Shown: in pieces, positions 13,184 through 38,553 of the stretch | Layout of the letters: every line of letters starts with the position of its first letter | Numbering within the stretch: the first letter of the stretch is position 1 | UHGV virus genome: UHGV-0007863 | Origin: a virus | Reading direction: 5' to 3' (one strand) | Length of the DNA stretch: 38,717 bases | Notes under the pieces: model-generated | The model's input: the letters and a program-made list of their open reading frames with translations, nothing else | What the model was told of the DNA's origin: nothing | Databases searched by the model: none | Program-made: the position numbers and the translations under genes

Positions 13184-13514
13184 ATCAGCAGCAGAGCGCA
13201 AAGCCGCTCAGAGAGCCAGACAAGCTGCATCCGGTGTACGTAAGCTGGAGATTGTGCTTGATGCTCAGGAAATTGAAATGCTGGAGCGGAACTGCGCCAC
13301 GCGTCGCCCCGGGCGTGTGCCTTACGAATTTGGTGAGTATATTGCGTTACTTATCCGCCAGGATGATGCACGTGTGCGCGGGCGTATAAAATCGATCAGC
13401 AGAAAACTTTGCGGTAAGTGCGGCGAGAGAGTTCCCGTTAATTCATGCCCGTGTAATGGTGACTCGCAATGCTGGGTGACTAAAGGCTGGCATGAAACGA
13501 AATTAATAGTGTGA
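13176..13514 (+). CDS. Small basic protein with C-terminal Cys cluster (zinc-ribbon-like), at the position where lambdoid phages carry Q
   Basis: 112 aa; basic N-terminus; C-x-x-C ... C-x-C ... C cluster; function not assignable from sequence. Confidence 0.5.
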   Translation: MAKSAAERKAAQRARQAASGVRKLEIVLDAQEIEMLERNCATRRPGRVPYEFGEYIALLIRQDDARVRGRIKSISRKLCGKCGERVPVNSCPCNGDSQCWVTKGWHETKLIV

Positions 13515-13522
13515 CATGTCAC
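13511..13522. repeat. 12-bp perfect palindrome GTGACATGTCAC, copy 1 of 3
   Basis: Read directly; overlaps the TGA stop of the 13176-13514 gene. Confidence 0.7.
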
Positions 13523-15937: not shown

Positions 15938-15963
15938 AGCCAGCTCATCGGCTGGCTGTTTGT
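15938..15963. terminator. Bidirectional terminator between convergent terminase and minus-strand moron gene
   Basis: AGCCAGC-TCATCG-GCTGGCT with an A-run before and GTTTGT after. Confidence 0.5.
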
Positions 15964-15973
15964 GACATGTCAC
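15962..15973. repeat. 12-bp perfect palindrome GTGACATGTCAC, copy 2 of 3
   Basis: Read directly; abuts the bidirectional terminator. Confidence 0.7.
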
Positions 15974-30560: not shown

Positions 30561-33035
30561 ATGAGACAGGAATGTATACAAGCGGTCCAGCAGGCGGCGC
30601 AGCGCACGTTAACGGCGCGAGAAATACAGAACATTGAAGACCGCATTTATCGAAATATGCGCTCCATTGCTCGTGATGACCCGATGTCGTGGAGACAACT
30701 TTCCGAATCAGAGCGGCTATATCGTGCAGCACAATTGGCATCTGAAGAATTACAGCGAGAAGCGGCATTAAGGAAACGTCGTGTGGCCCTCACTATAGCC
30801 GCACGTCAGAGATTGGATAAATTTATCAATAGCTATCAAGGGTCTGATGGGAAACTTGGCGCTCTTAACCGTACTATTGCTTTTAATGCAGACGGTAAAT
30901 CGAATTTCCTCTCTGTTGAATCCAGAACAAAAGCCACTCGTGATTATGCATTGAGTCAATTGCAGGAGGCATTTGAAGCAGTTGATCCTCGCTTTTTTGG
31001 CCTGTTTGAAGATGAAGCTGGCGTGCGTGACCTGGTATATGAAATGCGAGGGCAAAATACTGGCAATGCTAAAGCAAGAAAAGGTGCTAAGGCGTGGAGA
31101 GAAGTGACAGAGCTACTGCGCCGCCGGTTTAATGATGCTGGTGGGGACATTGGCTATCTCGAAAACTGGGGGATCCCTCAACATCATTCTATGGAAAAGG
31201 TTGGGGCGGTATCAAAGGATAAGTGGGTTAGCGATGTTATAGGTAAGCTGGATCGCAAATATTATATCCGAGCCGATGGACAACTGATGAACGATGCCGA
31301 GTTGTCTTCATTTCTTGGAGAGGCTTATAACACGATCGCTACTGGTGGGCTGAATAAGCTTACTGATACCGGAATGCGAATTTCCGGCGCACGTGCTAAC
31401 CGTGGTAATGCATCACGACAGATACATTTCAAAGATGCAGATTCCTATCTGCAATATCAACAACTTTATGGCGATCGCTCTCTATGGGAAATCATGGTCG
31501 GTCACCTGGAAGGTATCAGTAAAGATATTGCACTGGTGGAAACATATGGCCCAAACCCCGATCATGTTTTCCGCTCTCTTCTTGATCAGGTGAAGGCAGA
31601 AACGGCAACAGCTAACCCGAGTAAAACCGGTAAAGTCGAGCGGCTGGCGAACAACACAGAGAATCTGTACAACTTTATTTCCGGAAAGACACAGCCTGTA
31701 GCGAATCCGCACATCGCGCGATGGTCTGACAATATCCGCAACTGGCTGGTTGCCAGCAGACTCGGATCCGCGTTGCTGTCATCGTTCTCTGATCTTGGAA
31801 CCATGTATCTGTCTGCGAAGGTGACCAACCTTCCAATGAACCAGTTATTCCGCAACCAGCTTGAAGCTATGGACCCAACGAACCGTACAGAACTTGCGCG
31901 GGCGCGCCGCGCTGGTCTGGCGATGGAATCTCTACTTGGCAGCGTTAACCGCTGGGCGATGGATAATATGGGGCCGTCTGTGTCTCGTTGGGCTGCAACG
32001 GCGGTAATGCGTGCCAGTGGGCTTACAGCATGGTCAGATGCGCACAAGCGCGCCTATGGCGTAACCATGATGGGAAGCCTGGGAGAAGTAGTGTCACGGA
32101 CACCAGACCTTCGTAGCCTCGATGATTCTGATTTTCGTATCCTGAAAAGCAAAGGGATTACTGACACAGACTGGAGCGTATGGAAGCTGGCTCAACAGGA
32201 GGACTGGGGGAACGGCAATAATACGATGCTGACACCGGAAAGCATTATGCGTATCCCTGATTCAGCAGTTAAACATCTTGGTGAGCCTGAACGCGTGAAA
32301 TTTGAGGCAATGCGTAAACTGCTCGGTGCCGTAACTGAAGAAGTTGATATGGCTGTTATTACACCGGGAGCACGTGAGCAACTGATAACCGGTTCTGGTA
32401 TTCAGCGTGGAACATGGAAAGGTGAATTAACGAGAAGTGTTTTCCTGTTTAAATCGTTCCCTATCTCGGTGGTTATGCGTCACTGGTCACGCGCTATGGG
32501 TATTCCGTCTGCTGGTGGGCGTGCGGCATATATTGCGACGTTTATTGCCAGTACGACCATTCTTGGCGCTTTGTCGCAGCAACTTAACGACCTTGCGTCT
32601 GGTCGTAATCCTCGCGAGATGACAGGAGAAGATGCTGCTAAATTTTGGCTTGGTGCTCTACTGAAAGGTGGTGGTCTTGGCCTTTACGGTGACTTTTTAT
32701 TGTCAGATCACACTAGGTACGGAAGCGGCGCACTGGCGTCGATGCTTGGCCCGGTAGCTGGTCTGGTTGATGACGTAGTGAAGATTGCTCAGGGCATACC
32801 GTTAAATGCTGTGGAAGGGAAGAATGAGCAGACTGGTGGTGATCTGGTTAAGCTGGGGAAAGGTCTGATGCCAGGTGCGAATCTCTGGTACTTAAAGGCG
32901 GCTCTCGATCACATGATCTTTAACCAGATGCAGGAGTATTTTTCACCAGGTTATTTGCGTAAAATGGAGCAACGTTCGAAGAAAGAGTTTAACCAGACAT
33001 ACTGGTGGCGACCACAGGATGTCACTCCGCAATAA
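30561..33035 (+). CDS. Large internal virion / ejection protein (T7 gp16 position)
   Basis: 824 aa; last gene before the moron island and tail fiber. Confidence 0.45.
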   Translation: MRQECIQAVQQAAQRTLTAREIQNIEDRIYRNMRSIARDDPMSWRQLSESERLYRAAQLASEELQREAALRKRRVALTIAARQRLDKFINSYQGSDGKLGALNRTIAFNADGKSNFLSVESRTKATRDYALSQLQEAFEAVDPRFFGLFEDEAGVRDLVYEMRGQNTGNAKARKGAKAWREVTELLRRRFNDAGGDIGYLENWGIPQHHSMEKVGAVSKDKWVSDVIGKLDRKYYIRADGQLMNDAELSSFLGEAYNTIATGGLNKLTDTGMRISGARANRGNASRQIHFKDADSYLQYQQLYGDRSLWEIMVGHLEGISKDIALVETYGPNPDHVFRSLLDQVKAETATANPSKTGKVERLANNTENLYNFISGKTQPVANPHIARWSDNIRNWLVASRLGSALLSSFSDLGTMYLSAKVTNLPMNQLFRNQLEAMDPTNRTELARARRAGLAMESLLGSVNRWAMDNMGPSVSRWAATAVMRASGLTAWSDAHKRAYGVTMMGSLGEVVSRTPDLRSLDDSDFRILKSKGITDTDWSVWKLAQQEDWGNGNNTMLTPESIMRIPDSAVKHLGEPERVKFEAMRKLLGAVTEEVDMAVITPGAREQLITGSGIQRGTWKGELTRSVFLFKSFPISVVMRHWSRAMGIPSAGGRAAYIATFIASTTILGALSQQLNDLASGRNPREMTGEDAAKFWLGALLKGGGLGLYGDFLLSDHTRYGSGALASMLGPVAGLVDDVVKIAQGIPLNAVEGKNEQTGGDLVKLGKGLMPGANLWYLKAALDHMIFNQMQEYFSPGYLRKMEQRSKKEFNQTYWWRPQDVTPQ

Positions 33036-33231
33036 GGAAGTGTTGTGTTTTTAATTATTTTGAGTGTGATAATTTCTGGTGTATTGTTATTTATTGACCG
33101 CTACAAATATTTTCTTAACCCTCAGACTCAAGCTATTTGCTGGTTCATCTTTGTTGTGCAGGGAGTAGTTCTTGTTGCAAGCCTTATTGAGGGGAGGCCT
33201 CTTATTTTTACTGGGTAAATTAGGTGACTAC

Positions 33232-33528
33232 ATGCAAGCTATAGGATTCATTGTTTATATCGTCGTTGGTCTTTTTCAGTTGGCAGCAATTATGGCTGGG
33301 CTTGAATCATGGTGGGGATTGCACTGGATAATTGCAGCCCCCATTGCTTTCATCGTGAGCTATATTCCATTTGTTGGAGCGATTGTTGGTATGGTTGGCG
33401 CTGTGGATGTATGGCGGTGGGAGTGGTGGCAGGCTGGCCTTCTCTTCTTTGGTGGGATCATCTTTGCTATTGTCTGCGGTGGAATGTCATCATTTTTCGA
33501 ATGGCTATCATTCAGAAAAGGGACGTGA
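33232..33528 (+). CDS. Small polytopic membrane protein (moron)
   Basis: ATG 33232 with AGGTGA upstream; 98 aa, almost entirely hydrophobic; preceded by an AT-rich stretch at 33036-33231. Confidence 0.5.
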   Translation: MQAIGFIVYIVVGLFQLAAIMAGLESWWGLHWIIAAPIAFIVSYIPFVGAIVGMVGAVDVWRWEWWQAGLLFFGGIIFAIVCGGMSSFFEWLSFRKGT

Positions 33529-33536
33529 CATGTCAC
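33525..33536. repeat. 12-bp perfect palindrome GTGACATGTCAC, copy 3 of 3
   Basis: Read directly; overlaps the TGA stop of the membrane-protein gene. Confidence 0.7.
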
Positions 33537-33537
33537 A

Positions 33538-33562
33538 GGCCGCTTTCGCGGCCTTTTCTTTA
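33538..33562 (+). terminator. Rho-independent terminator after the membrane-protein gene
   Basis: GGCCGC-TTTC-GCGGCC followed by TTTTCTTTAT; overlaps the 3' end of the convergent minus-strand gene. Confidence 0.6.
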
Positions 33563-33817
33563 TGTGGTTTGTTTTCGTAATTGTTCGGCACAATAGTCGA
33601 GATGTGTTTGCAGATCCCGCATAGACATCTGTGAGCTGGTGACGTAGTTAATCAGTGCAGTCAGTTCGGCAAGTGGGCCATCGACATTAAATCCATCCTT
33701 ATCGAGATCCCGGAGTAATTTCATCAAGTGCGATCCTTCCACCAGTGACCTGACGCCTCCCGGCGTGTGAATCCTTTCGGTAAATCCGTCTTCCAGTGGA
33801 TAGTGATACTGCTGCAT
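33560..33817 (-). CDS. Small LexA-box-associated protein; candidate SOS-inducible antirepressor
   Basis: 85 aa from ATG 33817 (MQQYHYPL...), GGAG 8 nt upstream; ORF track gives a TTG start at 33835; a LexA box sits 20-40 nt upstream; function is inference. Confidence 0.5.
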   Translation of the reverse strand: MQQYHYPLEDGFTERIHTPGGVRSLVEGSHLMKLLRDLDKDGFNVDGPLAELTALINYVTSSQMSMRDLQTHLDYCAEQLRKQTT

Positions 33818-33836
33818 CTTATCTTCTCCATGCAAT

Positions 33837-33856
33837 AACTGTATATTTATACAGTA
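33837..33856. promoter_or_regulatory. LexA (SOS) box AACTGTATATTTATACAGTA
   Basis: CTGT-N8-ACAG with AT-rich spacer; 18/20 to the consensus TACTGTATATATATACAGTA; overlaps the likely promoter of the minus-strand gene. Confidence 0.75.
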
Positions 33857-33893
33857 TCAAATAATTTGTTTGCTATCCAGCACGTTTTGCAAA

Positions 33894-33908
33894 TTACCTG
33901 AAAGGTAA
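33894..33908. promoter_or_regulatory. Perfect TTACC-TGAAA-GGTAA upstream of the tail-fiber gene
   Basis: Read directly; a half-site GGTAA at 33955-33959 follows. Confidence 0.6.
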
Positions 33909-34012
33909 TATCTATTCATATTTACAGCCTTTCTATCCATATGTGGTTTTTCAGGTAATAGAATAACCAGATATGCGGCGCAACGGGTGCTGCGACTATC
34001 TGGAGATTTAAC

Positions 34013-36142
34013 ATGACGGTCTCAACCGAAGTTGACCACAACGAATACACCGGTAACGGCGTTACGACATCGTTTCCGTATACTTTTCGAATTTTCAGAA
34101 AATCAGACCTGGTTGTTCAGGTGTCTGACCTGAACGGGAACGTAACAGAATTGGTCCTGGATACCGGTTATACGGTAACTGGGGCGGGCACTTATAGTGG
34201 CGGTTCTGTGGTTCTTCTGTCTCCGCTTGCTACTGGATGGCGAATTACGATAGATCGTGTGCTTGATGTAGTGCAGGAGACAGACCTTCGCAATCAGGGA
34301 AAATTTTTCCCCGAAGTGCATGAAGATGCCTTTGACTACCTGACGATGCTGATCCAGCAATGTTTTGGGTGGTTCAGACGTGCATTGATGAAGCCCTCTC
34401 TGCTTGCAAAATATTACGATGCAAAGCAAAACAGAATTTCTAACCTTGCAGATCCATCACTTGAGCAGGATGCTGTAAATAATCGCTCAATGCGTAATTA
34501 TGTCGATGCTGCAATCGCCGGGGTTGTTGGTGGTTTTGGTTGGTTTATTCAGTATGGTTCTGGGGCTGTGCACCGAACGTTCCAGGATAAGATGAGAGAC
34601 ACCATTAGTGTTCGTGATTTTGGTGCAAAAGGAGACGGCATAACAGATGATACTGTAGCAATTCAAAATGCTATTAATGCAGTACCAGAAGGGGCTATAC
34701 TTGGATTTTATGGTGGTGAATTTGTTTTTGATAAGGTTGAATTGTTTAAGCCAATAACATTAGTTGGTGATGCAACGTTAATTCACAACGGATTTAGAAT
34801 AAAATCTAGCAGAATCCGATCACTTTTATCTGGCGTTCAGAAATGCAAGGATTACTCCGAGTCTTCAAGAGCATTTTATTGCTATGCAAATGAAGACCAA
34901 AGAGATTATGACGATATTCAGATTTTATTTAATAGATTTGAAGGTTTCTTTTACTCTACGGCATTTGTTGCAAAAAACTATTATTTGGAGAATGACCCTA
35001 ATTCAAGAATTGTCAAAAACACAAAAGTAATAGGGTGTACATCAGTTGCTCCTGATTCTGTAAATGCCGGTCATTTTCAACATATAGGCGTTACAAATGC
35101 TGAAACATCACATAACTCAACTTATGGCGGACAAAATGCAACATCATACAACTTCATTAACCAGAATGGATTTGTAAGGATTATAGGAAATTATGACCAT
35201 AACAATAGCTATGGTTCATGTGAGCTTGAGAACTCAATGGTGAGTAACTCAGTCATATCAGGTAATACGTTTTCGTCATATTTATGGGTGGATGATACAA
35301 GTAATGTTACTATTTCTGGAAATACAGTTTCATCAGGGATCAAAGTAACATCGCAAACTGACGATGTTCATAATATAACCATATCAGCAAATACCACAAA
35401 ACGGATTACTATAGAGCAATTTGGAGAATCTCCAACAGGTCTGGTATATGGTGCATTAATTTCCTGCAACACTATTACTGGCGACAGTGATGGAAGTTCA
35501 GACATTTTATGTACGTCACTTGTTACAGGTGAAATTTCATCAAATTATTGTCATGGATCAGAAAAAAATATATCAATTGTCCGCCTGGATTCTTCTGATA
35601 TAACCGTTAGAAACAATAAAGGAAACAAAGGATTACTTACAATAAGTAACGATGGTGGAAGGATAATTGAATATGGCAATGATTCTATGGTTCTGTCTGG
35701 AAGCATAGATAGCAGACATATACATAATTTATTACATCCAGACACATCGTATTTAGATCTACCGGGGAAATATCTGCACGGAACTAAATATACTGGCAGT
35801 ATCCCCCCCGGTTCCACAGGAACTGTATCACTTCAAATACCATCAGGGGCAAGCCTTGTTTTCAGGGGGGTTTCTATATGGGTTCTAATTAGAGATGTTA
35901 GCAATAACAATATATCGTCATTCAGAATTGATGGTTCATATAGAGTTGTTGGTGGAAGTGTTGGTCTTAGTTTTGCTGATGCTTATTCGAAACTCGGGGT
36001 GGATGCAAACTCTATAACAGTGTCAAACAATAACAGCACTTCTGACAATATCAGCATAGCAATTAAAAACACAGATTCATCAAAAACCCTTCAGGTTACT
36101 GTTATGCCGGAGGTTTCAAGCAGGTTAGGTATTGAGGAATAG
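34013..36142 (+). CDS. Tail fiber / tailspike with T7 gp17-like N-terminal adaptor domain and beta-helix-like, AT-rich distal domain
   Basis: 709 aa; N-terminus parallels the T7 tail-fiber N-terminal pattern; distal part has repeats such as NVTISGNTVSSGIKV...NITISANTTK; base composition turns AT-rich from about 34600. Confidence 0.75.
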   Translation: MTVSTEVDHNEYTGNGVTTSFPYTFRIFRKSDLVVQVSDLNGNVTELVLDTGYTVTGAGTYSGGSVVLLSPLATGWRITIDRVLDVVQETDLRNQGKFFPEVHEDAFDYLTMLIQQCFGWFRRALMKPSLLAKYYDAKQNRISNLADPSLEQDAVNNRSMRNYVDAAIAGVVGGFGWFIQYGSGAVHRTFQDKMRDTISVRDFGAKGDGITDDTVAIQNAINAVPEGAILGFYGGEFVFDKVELFKPITLVGDATLIHNGFRIKSSRIRSLLSGVQKCKDYSESSRAFYCYANEDQRDYDDIQILFNRFEGFFYSTAFVAKNYYLENDPNSRIVKNTKVIGCTSVAPDSVNAGHFQHIGVTNAETSHNSTYGGQNATSYNFINQNGFVRIIGNYDHNNSYGSCELENSMVSNSVISGNTFSSYLWVDDTSNVTISGNTVSSGIKVTSQTDDVHNITISANTTKRITIEQFGESPTGLVYGALISCNTITGDSDGSSDILCTSLVTGEISSNYCHGSEKNISIVRLDSSDITVRNNKGNKGLLTISNDGGRIIEYGNDSMVLSGSIDSRHIHNLLHPDTSYLDLPGKYLHGTKYTGSIPPGSTGTVSLQIPSGASLVFRGVSIWVLIRDVSNNNISSFRIDGSYRVVGGSVGLSFADAYSKLGVDANSITVSNNNSTSDNISIAIKNTDSSKTLQVTVMPEVSSRLGIEE

Positions 36143-36218: not shown

Positions 36219-36518
36219 ATGATGAATATAGAAGTTGATATAACACCAATTCTTCACGCACTTTGCGCTGTTGTCGCACAAGTTCTTGTTGGTCTTTTTA
36301 CCGGAAACTGGGCTTACGGTGCGATAGCCGGTTGTACGTTCTTCATTGCGCGTGAACACACCCAGGCAGAATATCGCTGGATAGAAAAGTTTGGGAAAGG
36401 GAAACGTATCAACATGCCGTGGTGGGGAGGTTTTGATCCGCGCGTATGGGATGTTGGAAGCCTGTTTGACTTTGTTGTTCCTGTTACTGTTTGTTTTTGT
36501 GTTTATTTCTCTATTTGA
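36219..36518 (+). CDS. Hypothetical membrane protein between tail fiber and lysis cassette
   Basis: 99 aa with hydrophobic N- and C-terminal segments; weak Shine-Dalgarno. Confidence 0.45.
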   Translation: MMNIEVDITPILHALCAVVAQVLVGLFTGNWAYGAIAGCTFFIAREHTQAEYRWIEKFGKGKRINMPWWGGFDPRVWDVGSLFDFVVPVTVCFCVYFSI

Positions 36519-36740
36519 CTGCTACCGCGCCATTTGATGGTGCGGAATTCAACTAATCCTCTATATTTTGAATCATTTCTGTACTGCAATCTCTTCAGAG
36601 TTATGTAAAAGGCAAGCCTTATTATCGACATGAAAGGAAGGGGATTGACAATACATGGGTAACAAAAAACCATAAATGGTTTATCATGCATAATGCCTTT
36701 ACTATTCAGGAGGTAGTTATGCATATAAACGGTGGAAAAC

Positions 36741-37145
36741 ATGTCAGCTCAACTAACCAGTGAAACTTTAAATCAGTGGCTTAGCATGAGTTCTCTGGCG
36801 GCGGTGATAGCAGGAGTTCCTCCTGAGGTTGCTTTGGGGGCTTTGGCTGGGGCGGTAATTTTTGTTACCTCTGCGGTAGAGTATCCTATTCGTCGTCGTG
36901 TACTCTTGTCGATGCTTAGCTTTCTCTGCGGCCTTCTTTTTTATAAACCAGCAGCATCAATTCTTATCGGCATAGCCAGCCTGATCCCTACCATCACGCA
37001 GGACTCTTTTGAAAAAGGGATTGTTTTCTCAGTTGGCGCATTCGTGTCAGCAATTGTTGCTGTGCGTATTGGTATATGGCTCTATCACCGTTCCGATAAT
37101 CCACGCGAGTTAATTCCGGGGAGAAAAGACGATGGTAACGCATGA
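36741..37145 (+). CDS. Putative holin
   Basis: ATG 36741 with GGTGG 5 nt upstream; ~134 aa with three to four hydrophobic helices and a charged C-terminus; first gene of the lysis cassette. Confidence 0.55.
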   Translation: MSAQLTSETLNQWLSMSSLAAVIAGVPPEVALGALAGAVIFVTSAVEYPIRRRVLLSMLSFLCGLLFYKPAASILIGIASLIPTITQDSFEKGIVFSVGAFVSAIVAVRIGIWLYHRSDNPRELIPGRKDDGNA

Positions 37146-37440
37146 GTTTTTTTTGCTTATCACCAATGCAGTTATTTGTACTGGCATAGCAATTCGCGTT
37201 GTCACATTCCGGCGTAACGGCTCTCAACATCGAAGATGGGGAGGGTGGCTTGCTTATTTCCTTATTGTTGCTGCGGCCAGTATTCCTGTTCGTGTCGTCT
37301 ATGCAATCTGGTTACGCACGCCAATGGCTGTGGATTTATCTGAGGTCATTATCAACGCTGTCATGCTCGCCGCGGTTATTAAAACACGCGGTAACGTTGT
37401 TCAGATTTTCAAAATATCGAGGTCTAAACATGGAGATTAA
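37132..37440 (+). CDS. Second small membrane protein of the lysis cassette (holin or antiholin-like)
   Basis: 102 aa with at least two transmembrane segments; overlapping stop/start with holin and endolysin. Confidence 0.45.
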
Positions 37441-38059
37441 ACAATTCCAGCGAGCTGCTGGTATTAGCGAGTCGCTGGCCGCACGCTGGTTCTCGCATAT
37501 AACTTCTGCGATGAAAGAGTTTGGTATCAGCAAAGCAGAAGATCAGGCAATGTTTATTGCTCAGGTCGGGCATGAGTCTGGGGGCTTCACCCGGTTGCAG
37601 GAGAATTTCAACTACAGCGTCAGCGGTCTGGCTAACTTTGTTCGGGCTGGGCGTCTCACTCAGGGACAGGCCAACGCATTGGGGCGACGCGCAGGCGAAC
37701 CACCATTGCCACCTGAGCGCCAGAGAGCGATTGCCAATCTGGTGTACAGCAAACGCATGGGTAACAATGCTCCTGGCGATGGCTGGAACTACCGTGGGCG
37801 CGGACTTATCCAGATTACCGGTTTGAATAACTATCGTGATTGTGGAAACGCTCTTAAGGTTGACCTGCTGGAGAGTCCTGAATTGCTGGCGCAGGACGAA
37901 TACGCGGCTCGTAGCGCGGCGTGGTTCTTCTCCAGCAAAGGCTGCATGAAGTATACCGGAGATATTGCACGTGTAACTCTGCTTATCAATGGTGGCCGGA
38001 ACGGCATTGATGACCGGCGCGCGCGATACATCACTGCCAGTAAGGTGCTGGCGTTATGA
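37430..38059 (+). CDS. Endolysin, glycoside hydrolase family 19-like (chitinase-fold lysozyme)
   Basis: ATG 37430 in frame within ORF 37199-38059; motifs [12 protein letters not shown] and [12 protein letters not shown] recalled as typical of GH19-type endolysins; position between holin and spanins. Confidence 0.65.
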
Positions 38060-38553
38060 TCTGGGCATTCGCAAAAGCATACTGGAAACAGTTGGTTATC
38101 ATGGCGATGCTTGCTGTTCTGGTCATATCAGGAGTTGTAGCCTGGAATGCACACGGCATTCGTCAGTACGACGCCGGGTATGCGCAGGCACAGGAAGATC
38201 AGAAACAGGCTGATGATAAGGCCAGGTCACAACGTGATCAGGAGAAAACACAAATTGAACGTGAAGCACAATCCCGTATCGATGTGGCGCGTGTTGATGC
38301 TGAGCATGCTAATGCCGCTGCTGACAGCCTGCGCGCCGAGCTTGACAAAACCAAGCGACTCGCCGAACACTATACCGGATCTTTCCCCACTGGCACGCCA
38401 GCCAGCAAGGTCATCGGTGTGCTCGCCGACATGCTTGAAGAAAGCAACCGAGTTTACAACGCAACAGCAACTGAGGCTGAAAAGTATCGGATTGCAGGAG
38501 AATCCTGCGAACAGCAATACGATTCACTGAAGAAGCAAAAATCGTGGCACTGA
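38056..38553 (+). CDS. i-spanin (Rz-like)
   Basis: 165 aa; N-terminal transmembrane helix, charged coiled-coil periplasmic domain; immediately after the endolysin. Confidence 0.65.
38282..38530 (+). CDS. o-spanin (Rz1-like lipoprotein) nested in the +1 frame of the i-spanin gene
   Basis: [16 protein letters not shown]|C lipobox-type signal, Pro-rich mature region; entirely inside 38056-38553. Confidence 0.6.
   Translation: MWRVLMLSMLMPLLTACAPSLTKPSDSPNTIPDLSPLARQPARSSVCSPTCLKKATEFTTQQQLRLKSIGLQENPANSNTIH

Follow-up and report, generated by a model that had tools for sequence, protein, structure and literature searches.

What are two small hydrophobic genes doing between the last ejection-protein gene and the tailspike gene of an Escherichia coli prophage? 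The question is raised by positions 33,036 to 33,836 of the virus genome UHGV-0007863, a 38,717-nucleotide (nt) stretch of DNA that we refer to as the window. The original prediction, read from the sequence without database searches, placed here an AT-rich moron island in the position that sieA/immI occupies in phage P22 and suggested a membrane protein of a kind that commonly mediates superinfection exclusion or blocks DNA injection. The window is an integrated E. coli prophage of the genus Uetakevirus (epsilon15/phiV10-like temperate podoviruses). Over positions 14000-38717 it is 98.8% identical to phiv142-3 and ~97% identical to phiV10, both of them members of Uetakevirus. This match rules out a P22-like phage, so the P22-equivalent position stands as an analogy of gene order and not as a statement of kinship. 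The two genes, which we call orf57 and orf98, are a genuine accessory cassette with clear limits, though of an ordinary sort: small phage membrane proteins in a mosaic slot. The mildly notable part, to judge from sequence comparison and structure modelling, is orf98, which appears to be a highly conserved, widely distributed and confidently modelled membrane domain that has no name.

orf98 occupies positions 33232-33528 on the plus strand and encodes a predicted polytopic inner-membrane protein of 98 amino acids (aa). It had been described as an almost entirely hydrophobic open reading frame (ORF) with its own Shine-Dalgarno sequence, and both points were borne out: the protein has a grand average of hydropathy (GRAVY) of about 1.2 and 8 charged or His residues, and the sequence AGGTGA (33222-33227) lies 4 nt 5' of an ATG located 13 bases past the orf57 stop codon. 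Comparison with Klebsiella phage BUCT711 gave 52 nucleotide changes and 8 amino-acid changes, for a ratio of nonsynonymous to synonymous substitution rates (dN/dS) of 0.022. By this substitution pattern, orf98 is certainly a real gene under very strong constraint. The NCBI Prokaryotic Genome Annotation Pipeline (PGAP) calls the same gene as WP_001147904.1, and the protein matches PHROG 3075 (function unknown; E = 1.6e-54) with residues 1-98 aligned to profile positions 1-98. We also considered a 118-aa form beginning at TTG 33172 and rejected it, because all homologues begin MQAIG and the extension is not conserved; it is the form given in the phiv142-3 record (Orf12), where it overlaps orf57 (window positions 33172-33231). 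The guanine plus cytosine (GC) content of orf98 is 46.6% and its GC content at third codon positions (GC3) is 0.45, the same as in neighboring genes. A strong skew of T over A comes from hydrophobic codons, T occupying the second position in 45-54% of codons.

The segment upstream of orf98 (33036-33231), described in the original prediction as poor in ORFs, is in fact filled by a second gene. orf57 (33045-33218, plus strand, GTG to TAA) starts 10 nt past the stop codon of the preceding gene, is served by the Shine-Dalgarno sequence AAGGAAG (33034-33040), and encodes a 57-aa membrane protein with two predicted hydrophobic helices that fills the variable first position of the slot. The frame is uninterrupted and exactly 57 codons long in every one of 66 related loci, which represent 25 nucleotide alleles, with dN/dS values of 0.21-0.24, alternating GTG and TTG start codons and the two-helix pattern kept throughout. 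This conservation makes orf57 very probably a real gene. In the phage database it was found only in the company of orf98, and its protein had no match in Pfam (E <= 1), NCBIfam or PADLOC. The AT-richness claimed for the whole island is confined to this segment, which has 36.7% GC and ranks at the 4th percentile of the window (mean 48.9%); it does not extend to orf98. The composition of orf57 itself (GC 36.8%, GC3 0.35) departs from that of the preceding gene (GC3 0.45). A hairpin within orf57 (33188-33204) was dismissed as a terminator after alignment by eye to Klebsiella phage BUCT711, in which the stem differs. PGAP omits orf57 from its annotation, and the YDC107_2 record carries frameshifts across orf57 and the gene before it.

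The left boundary of the cassette is the stop codon of a gp17-like gene (30561-33035, plus strand) that corresponds to phiV10p20 and is the last of a block of ejection-protein genes; upstream of it lie genes for internal virion proteins and a transglycosylase-containing protein. The 824-aa gp17-like product, an internal virion or ejection protein, matches PHROG 684 ('virion structural protein') over its full length (E = 0), and its only hydrophobic segments, both moderate, are in the C-terminal quarter (residues 655-673 and 722-742). The right boundary is a perfect 12-bp palindrome, GTGACATGTCAC (33525-33536), which holds the orf98 stop codon (TGA), abuts an intrinsic terminator, and is conserved in phiV10, BUCT711 and the loci that we retrieved from IMG/VR. 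Aligned relatives match one another as far as the gp17 stop codon and again from the palindrome and terminator onward, which leaves sharp mosaic boundaries. The slot thereby defined appears to be a bounded, recombination-prone accessory cassette, and the original view of an island was well founded to this extent, given that its contents are swapped between relatives.

At least seven unrelated inner-membrane or signal-peptide proteins occupy the slot in relatives. The window, phiv142-3 and BUCT711 carry orf57 plus orf98; phiV10, SPN1S and 65FD have instead a 46-aa two-helix gene (p21 in phiV10); the epsilon15-like phage VB_ST_E15 has a 64-aa two-helix gene; and Tyrion has a 103-aa gene (gp19). 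Taken together, the two-helix proteins of the slot measure 46, 54, 57, 64 or 103 aa and the signal-peptide proteins 102, 123 or 175 aa, and every occupant found is predicted to be targeted to the inner membrane or the periplasm. phiV10p21, the VB_ST_E15 ORF and Tyrion gp19 share with orf57 and orf98 the slot, the orientation and the predicted membrane character, as well as the flanks (the gp17 stop codon on one side and, as seen in phiV10, the palindrome and terminator on the other). They differ in being unrelated in sequence (PHROGs 7892, 29212 or none) and in comprising one gene rather than two. The exchange can be followed most closely in phiV10, whose gp17 is 99.5% identical to that of the window over the C-terminal 200 aa yet is followed by p21 in place of orf57 and orf98, with the same terminator 3' of it.

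To describe the cassette in a broader set, we examined the best 80 of 105 IMG/VR relatives, all of which carry orf98 by construction. orf98 lies 3' of a gp17-like match in the 78 loci where such a match was resolved, and the match reaches the C-terminal end of the protein in 77 of them. orf57 stands between the two genes in 65 of the 80 loci; seven of the other 15 were inspected, and there its place is taken by unrelated proteins, either a membrane protein of 54 or 103 aa or one with a signal peptide (102, 123 or 175 aa). The spacing is tight in Cronobacter prophages, where the orf98 homologue begins one base past the stop codon of an 849-aa gp17-like gene. It is 36 nt past an 833-aa gene in a Salmonella prophage with a different order of genes (ejection genes, homologue, Bro-N, terminase). 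Among complete E. coli genomes, 222 of 5426 (~4%) contain the orf57-orf98 cassette, nearly always as a single chromosomal copy.

The cassette is also independent of the type of gp17 and of the tailspike that accompany it. In loci L059, L071-L075 and L086, orf98 is 94-100% identical to that of the window beside gp17-like proteins that are only 23-26% identical, and in Cronobacter the orf98 homologue is 61% identical versus about 29% for the gp17 C-terminus. Complete tailspikes in 69 loci, from prophages that are closely related in other respects, fell into 52 clusters of receptor-binding domains (60% identity or more), with a conserved N-terminal head-binding part common to all. The same E. coli-type cassette (95% identity or more) was associated with 32 of these tailspike clusters in 37 loci, which fits a step after adsorption. 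As a separate observation, loci L059, L071-L075 and L086 (3094-5619) have near-identical orf98, epsilon15p19-like and tailspike N-terminal sequences, the ejection gene being swapped as a module.

A first search for orf98 homologues returned 52 clusters, all from Enterobacterales and all unnamed, in the genera Escherichia, Klebsiella, Cronobacter, Salmonella, Yersinia and Dickeya. Searched against 1.84 billion representative sequences, the family profile produced 742 matches at E <= 1e-3 and 311 at E <= 1e-10, and the domain spreads over >700 clusters at 50% identity, from Enterobacterales to Alphaproteobacteria, Desulfovibrio and Chloroflexota. The conserved residues include G13, Q16 and A19, an acidic Trp-rich loop (ESWWG), a Y-I-P followed by GxxxGxxGA (G49xxxG53xxG56A57), a second Trp-rich loop (W-x-W-E-W-W-Q-A), LFFGG, and a basic C-terminal tail that is the sole site of Lys and Arg accumulation. 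An AlphaFold2 model computed from the family alignment had a mean predicted local distance difference test (pLDDT) score of 91.4 and helices at residues 2-28, 32-42, 46-59 and 65-97. Topology prediction, proposed in the original prediction as a check, thus gave two modelled membrane-spanning helices flanking two short ones, and it left two options for the middle pair. The short helices could form one kinked span (three transmembrane segments, N-terminus outside) or, alternatively, a re-entrant hairpin with both termini inside. Some relatives carry the domain in larger proteins, with four tandem copies in a 427-aa protein (P0061, pLDDT of 47 when modelled with AlphaFold2 without an alignment) and fusions to RDD, DUF805 or MORN-repeat regions in others (P0073, P0072/P0078 and P0151). 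Pfam searches of 20 long fusion relatives identified DUF805, RDD and MORN only. These arrangements hint at oligomeric assembly and a wider cellular role.

Searches for a described relative of orf98 were negative throughout. The family profile had no match among PDB sequences, and Foldseek comparisons of the model with the PDB and BFVD gave E values above 1 in every case, including the potassium channel pore domains and holins near the top. There was no match in NCBIfam or PADLOC, and Pfam (E <= 1) returned only a sub-threshold match to a holin. PADLOC-DB v2 (E <= 1) has no family for orf57, orf98 or the 85-aa protein encoded downstream on the opposite strand, and an Rfam scan of positions 32800-34200 found nothing significant.

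Not all relatives of orf98 are near ejection genes. One was located at the end of an element, next to integrase and Bro-N genes, and another after a gene for a single-stranded DNA-binding protein, with RecT and RepL nearby. A serine-recombinase element that interrupts comM in Microvirga carries two more, and in Buttiauxella one comes after umuDC (one of the contig scans used a narrow peptide pattern and returned 9 loci). Such distant relatives reside in mobile-element contexts without ejection genes and, in some cases, without any recognizable phage gene. Their function must therefore make sense without virion production, as a self-contained activity. The distribution suggests a function useful to mobile elements in general.

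When and from where the two genes are transcribed bears directly on what they might do. A scan of positions 32700-34100 for sigma-70 promoters (9/12 matches or better) found none upstream of orf57 or orf98, the only two matches being at the 3' end of orf98 (33484-33536). Relaxing the scan revealed weak candidates only, all inside orf57, the best of which is the extended -10-like TGTGATAAT at 33065-33073; a weak promoter may be embedded in coding sequence. No promoter was found upstream of the orf98 homologues in other contexts (loci L020 and L010), and orf98 modules share only 12-15 nt 5' of the ATG whatever the upstream gene. With this short shared sequence and no intergenic room, the cassette is not expected to bring a promoter of its own. 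On sequence alone, orf57 and orf98 would form the tail of the late virion operon, with their own ribosome-binding sites and a terminator and with no demonstrable promoter. The terminator, which the original prediction had recognized, reads AGGCCGC-TTTC-GCGGCCT followed by TTTCTTT (33537-33561, plus strand) and ends the rightward transcription unit. Its stem (33537-33554) has 7 pairs, 6 of them G-C, and the 61-nt region around it folds at -19.9 kcal/mol (z = -2.3).

The palindrome that precedes the terminator is itself unusual, with 3 exact copies of GTGACATGTCAC in the window (13511-13522, 15962-15973 and 33525-33536) versus 0.13 expected and with 0 of 100 shuffled sequences reaching 3. The copies mark the head of the packaging operon, the region downstream of the terminase large subunit and the end of orf98. 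For two of them the neighbor is an intrinsic terminator of the rightward late transcription unit. The third comes after an epsilon15p49-like 'transcriptional regulator' ORF, at a point annotated as a putative terminator in the phiV10 record too. That record is linear and keeps two copies, and the position of the third coincides with its ends. GTGACATGTCAC could be a site for a late regulator, for antitermination or for RNA processing.

The promoter results also decide how far the word moron applies. Morons in the sense of Juhala and Hendrix are extra DNA with a different composition, a terminator and promoter of their own, and expression from the repressed prophage (restated in PMC3594210). 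The cassette is extra DNA, as seen from the 46-aa gene of phiV10 versus the 57-aa and 98-aa genes of the window after near-identical gp17 C-termini, and it has its own terminator. Its composition is distinct in orf57 and like that of the neighbors in orf98. The term fails in the strict sense at the promoter, for none was found upstream of either gene, orf57 follows gp17 closely, and both genes are co-oriented with the late operon.

How, then, might the cassette act? Our leading reading, which we hold tentatively and with less than even confidence, is that orf57 and orf98 are an envelope-acting accessory cassette that blocks phage DNA entry after adsorption. Both proteins would sit in the inner membrane of the phage-carrying cell, act on its envelope, and stop related podophages from passing DNA through their incoming ejection conduit of the gp15-gp17 type, as P22 SieA, HK97 gp15 and T4 Imm do in their own systems. 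The exclusion activity, its target and the expression in the lysogen are all argued by analogy with these precedents. We rank post-adsorption exclusion first because of the precedents, the confinement of hydrophobic segments to the C-terminal quarter of the gp17-like protein, the envelope-targeted occupants of the slot and the independence of the cassette from receptor specificity. Also in its favor are the succession of ejection genes, small inner-membrane genes, a gene named as an anti-repressor and the tailspike, which parallels 16-sieA-immI-9 of P22; the accessory distribution of the cassette, replaced by p21 in phiV10 and present in a minority of E. coli genomes; the orf98 relatives located apart from ejection genes; and a lysis cassette that is complete elsewhere in the prophage.

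The closest parallel is with P22, where the order is gene 16 (ejection), sieA, mnt/arc/ant and gene 9 (tailspike). Like sieA, the cassette specifies small, predicted polytopic inner-membrane proteins between the last ejection gene and the anti-repressor and tailspike region, is present in only some relatives, and belongs to a temperate podovirus; its position between the last ejection gene and the tailspike is that of sieA, by analogy only, since the phage genus is different. The FxRYPxEAxxFNK motif of SieA is, however, absent from orf57 and orf98 by inspection, and orf98 has 98 aa versus 162-164 aa for SieA. Furthermore, P22 sieA has a promoter of its own and lies on the strand opposite to gene 16. 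By contrast, orf57 and orf98 run in the same direction as the late operon, and no promoter was found for them. Escape mutations from P22 SieA map to the C-termini of gp16 and gp20 (PMC10883804). HK97 gp15, the first moron described, is a YebO-like inner-membrane exclusion protein whose gene adjoins the tape-measure gene (PMC3594210). It resembles orf98 in being a small membrane protein encoded in a virion-gene operon next to a DNA-conduit gene and in having homologues outside prophages. HK97 gp15 has its own promoter, and its expression from the prophage was demonstrated (PMC3594210). No promoter was detected for orf98, which has no Pfam match in common with HK97 gp15. T4 Imm shows that exclusion proteins need not be expressed from a prophage, although T4 is an unrelated type of phage and here too there is no Pfam match. 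Pfam holds models for both the HK97 gp15/YebO and the T4 Imm families.

Several results weigh against exclusion. orf98 has no similarity to SieA of types A-C (BLASTP E = 20; hhalign probability 0.2%), and searches of PADLOC, Pfam and NCBIfam placed neither orf57 nor orf98 in a family. Since the genes continue directly from the late genes on the same strand and no promoter was detected, the default expectation is late lytic expression, unlike that of sieA or HK97 gp15, which are expressed from the prophage. orf98 is, in addition, far more conserved than the ejection protein (61% identity to Cronobacter and dN/dS of 0.02 versus about 29%); this conservation, together with the gp17 types of only 23-26% identity found beside it, argues against a co-evolving contact with gp17. 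If orf98 excludes phages, its conservation and indifference to the type of gp17 would favor action via a conserved host component or by an oligomer sufficient in itself. Every Uetakevirus examined has at least one small inner-membrane protein in the slot, and a slot that is never empty could reflect a requirement of the lytic cycle instead of a defence that can be dispensed with. The literature that we searched makes no mention of WP_001147904, and papers on phiV10 or epsilon15 superinfection and integral membrane proteins did not refer to the small membrane ORFs in title or abstract. The study of phiv142-3 by quantitative reverse transcription PCR is silent on orf11-13 in its main text, and its supplement mentions none of orf7, orf12 and orf13 (PMC7724020).

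The promoter-less layout at the end of the late operon, the conservation of orf98 and the never-empty slot put a late lytic membrane function seriously in play. We regard it as quite possible, if still doubtful, that the proteins tune lysis timing in the manner of a holin or antiholin, or form a viroporin-like small oligomeric channel that alters the membrane potential. Contiguity and co-orientation with the late operon under a common terminator and with no promoter found, and occupancy of the slot in every relative examined, are what such a role would predict. The glycine patterns of orf98 (G49xxxG53xxG56A57 and FFGG) suggest tight helix packing, and the four tandem copies in P0061 and the modelled pair of long helices flanking two short ones are in keeping with a late membrane function. 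The protein is also similar to phage holins (Phage_holin_5_2/Hol44) in size, in its several hydrophobic helices and in its glycine-rich packing. Yet the match to Phage_holin_5_2 scored 15.2 bits versus a cut-off of 29.2, the fold matches to potassium channel pores and holins were not significant, and orf98 is outside the lysis cassette, which is already complete at 36732-38553 with two holin-family genes (36732-37440), an endolysin and a spanin (38056-38553). Signal-peptide proteins also occupy the slot, and some orf98 relatives reside in loci with no identified late operon. The patchy distribution of the orf98 family over mobile elements would suit a lysogenic conversion factor that alters host fitness, for example envelope stress tolerance or serum survival, with no phage exclusion at all. 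The near-identical phiv142-3 was reported to help its avian pathogenic E. coli host survive in serum (PMC7724020). The same study credits the phenotypes to orf6 and orf10, however, and no lysogenic promoter was found and no particular host pathway is indicated by the sequence, all of which makes a fitness factor unlikely in our estimation.

Position by itself would favor an accessory of the ejection machinery, be it a part of the virion or a protein that serves the hydrophobic gp17-like product as its chaperone or immunity partner. In enterobacterial podophage-type prophages orf98 is always directly 3' of the last ejection gene, even in the different architecture of Salmonella and with the one-base gap of Cronobacter. 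We consider this role very unlikely, because the mismatched conservation of orf98 and gp17, with one orf98 allele beside highly divergent gp17 types, argues against a chaperone or partner. phiV10, moreover, lacks orf98 despite its nearly identical gp17 C-terminus, distant relatives are found in loci without ejection genes, and the slot also holds secreted signal-peptide proteins, which are not packageable. Most improbable of all is a helper of serotype conversion, that is, a small hydrophobic inhibitor of the host O-antigen polymerase or of O-antigen modification. Iap of Pseudomonas phage D3 and the small hydrophobic conversion proteins of epsilon15 are comparable helpers. Uetakeviruses are O-antigen-specific and usually carry conversion genes beside the tailspike (oac, wzy-like, gtr), and no recognizable conversion gene follows the tailspike in this prophage. 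Against such a helper, the same cassette is combined with 32 tailspike receptor-binding clusters in 37 loci, the spread of orf98 over six genera makes a type-specific O-antigen target unlikely, and Cronobacter loci hold orf98 together with gtr or acyltransferase genes.

Should the cassette block DNA entry, the few inner-membrane exclusion proteins known so far would be joined by a family unrelated to them in sequence. Others could then be sought by a simple rule of position, immediately downstream of the last ejection gene and ahead of the terminator. It would also matter in practice: being present in about 4% of complete E. coli genomes, avian pathogenic strains included, it could affect susceptibility to the O-antigen-specific podophages considered for typing or biocontrol. 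A bolder proposal, which we think rather doubtful, is that the widespread unnamed domain of orf98 oligomerizes in the inner membrane as a plug or pore and represents a new family of DNA-entry blockers carried by phages and other mobile elements, with the slot right after the last ejection gene being a general hot spot, predictable from its position, for exclusion genes of temperate podoviruses, on the model of sieA in P22. If orf98 encodes only a late membrane protein, it would be an ordinary uncharacterized phage gene. The useful outcome would then be two annotation fixes, namely the restoration of orf57, which PGAP leaves out, and the correction of the orf98 start in the phiv142-3 record.

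Convergent with orf98 is an 85-aa epsilon15p19-like gene (33560-33817, minus strand; PHROG 450, E = 1e-47), which the original prediction had noted as controlled by LexA. The gene ends within the T-run of the terminator, and PGAP calls the same 258-nt coding sequence. A perfect LexA-type box, CTGTATATTTATACAG (33839-33854), lies 22 nt upstream of its ATG and is the sole such site in the window (0.14 matches expected by chance). Some records name the epsilon15p19-like family anti-repressor, and the C-terminal part of the protein has a weak match to the C-terminus of the anti-repressor family PHROG 1760 (E = 6.6e-7). From these features the gene is probably an SOS-controlled small anti-repressor, which suggests that SOS induction proceeds via a LexA-controlled anti-repressor rather than by repressor cleavage.

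A second variable region, on the minus strand, is found in relatives between the terminator and the epsilon15p19-like gene (L001, 3352-4216; L004, 4329-5967; L005, 5340-6129; L006, 6362-7620). Its cargo includes Bro-N anti-repressors, a HicA/DUF1902 (HicAB-like) pair in Cronobacter, a DUF2335 protein, and orf9-orf11 of phiv142-3, among which orf10 reportedly has an effect on serum resistance. In the window this region is minimal and holds no cargo. Elsewhere in the prophage, the integrase gene is at 193-1449 and the tailspike gene at 34013-36142. Directly 3' of the tailspike gene, positions 36219-36518 (plus strand) encode a 99-aa protein with hydrophobic segments (PHROG 1443), at a site where phiV10 has oac, VB_ST_E15 has a wzy/ligase-like gene and Cronobacter prophages have gtr or acyltransferase genes.

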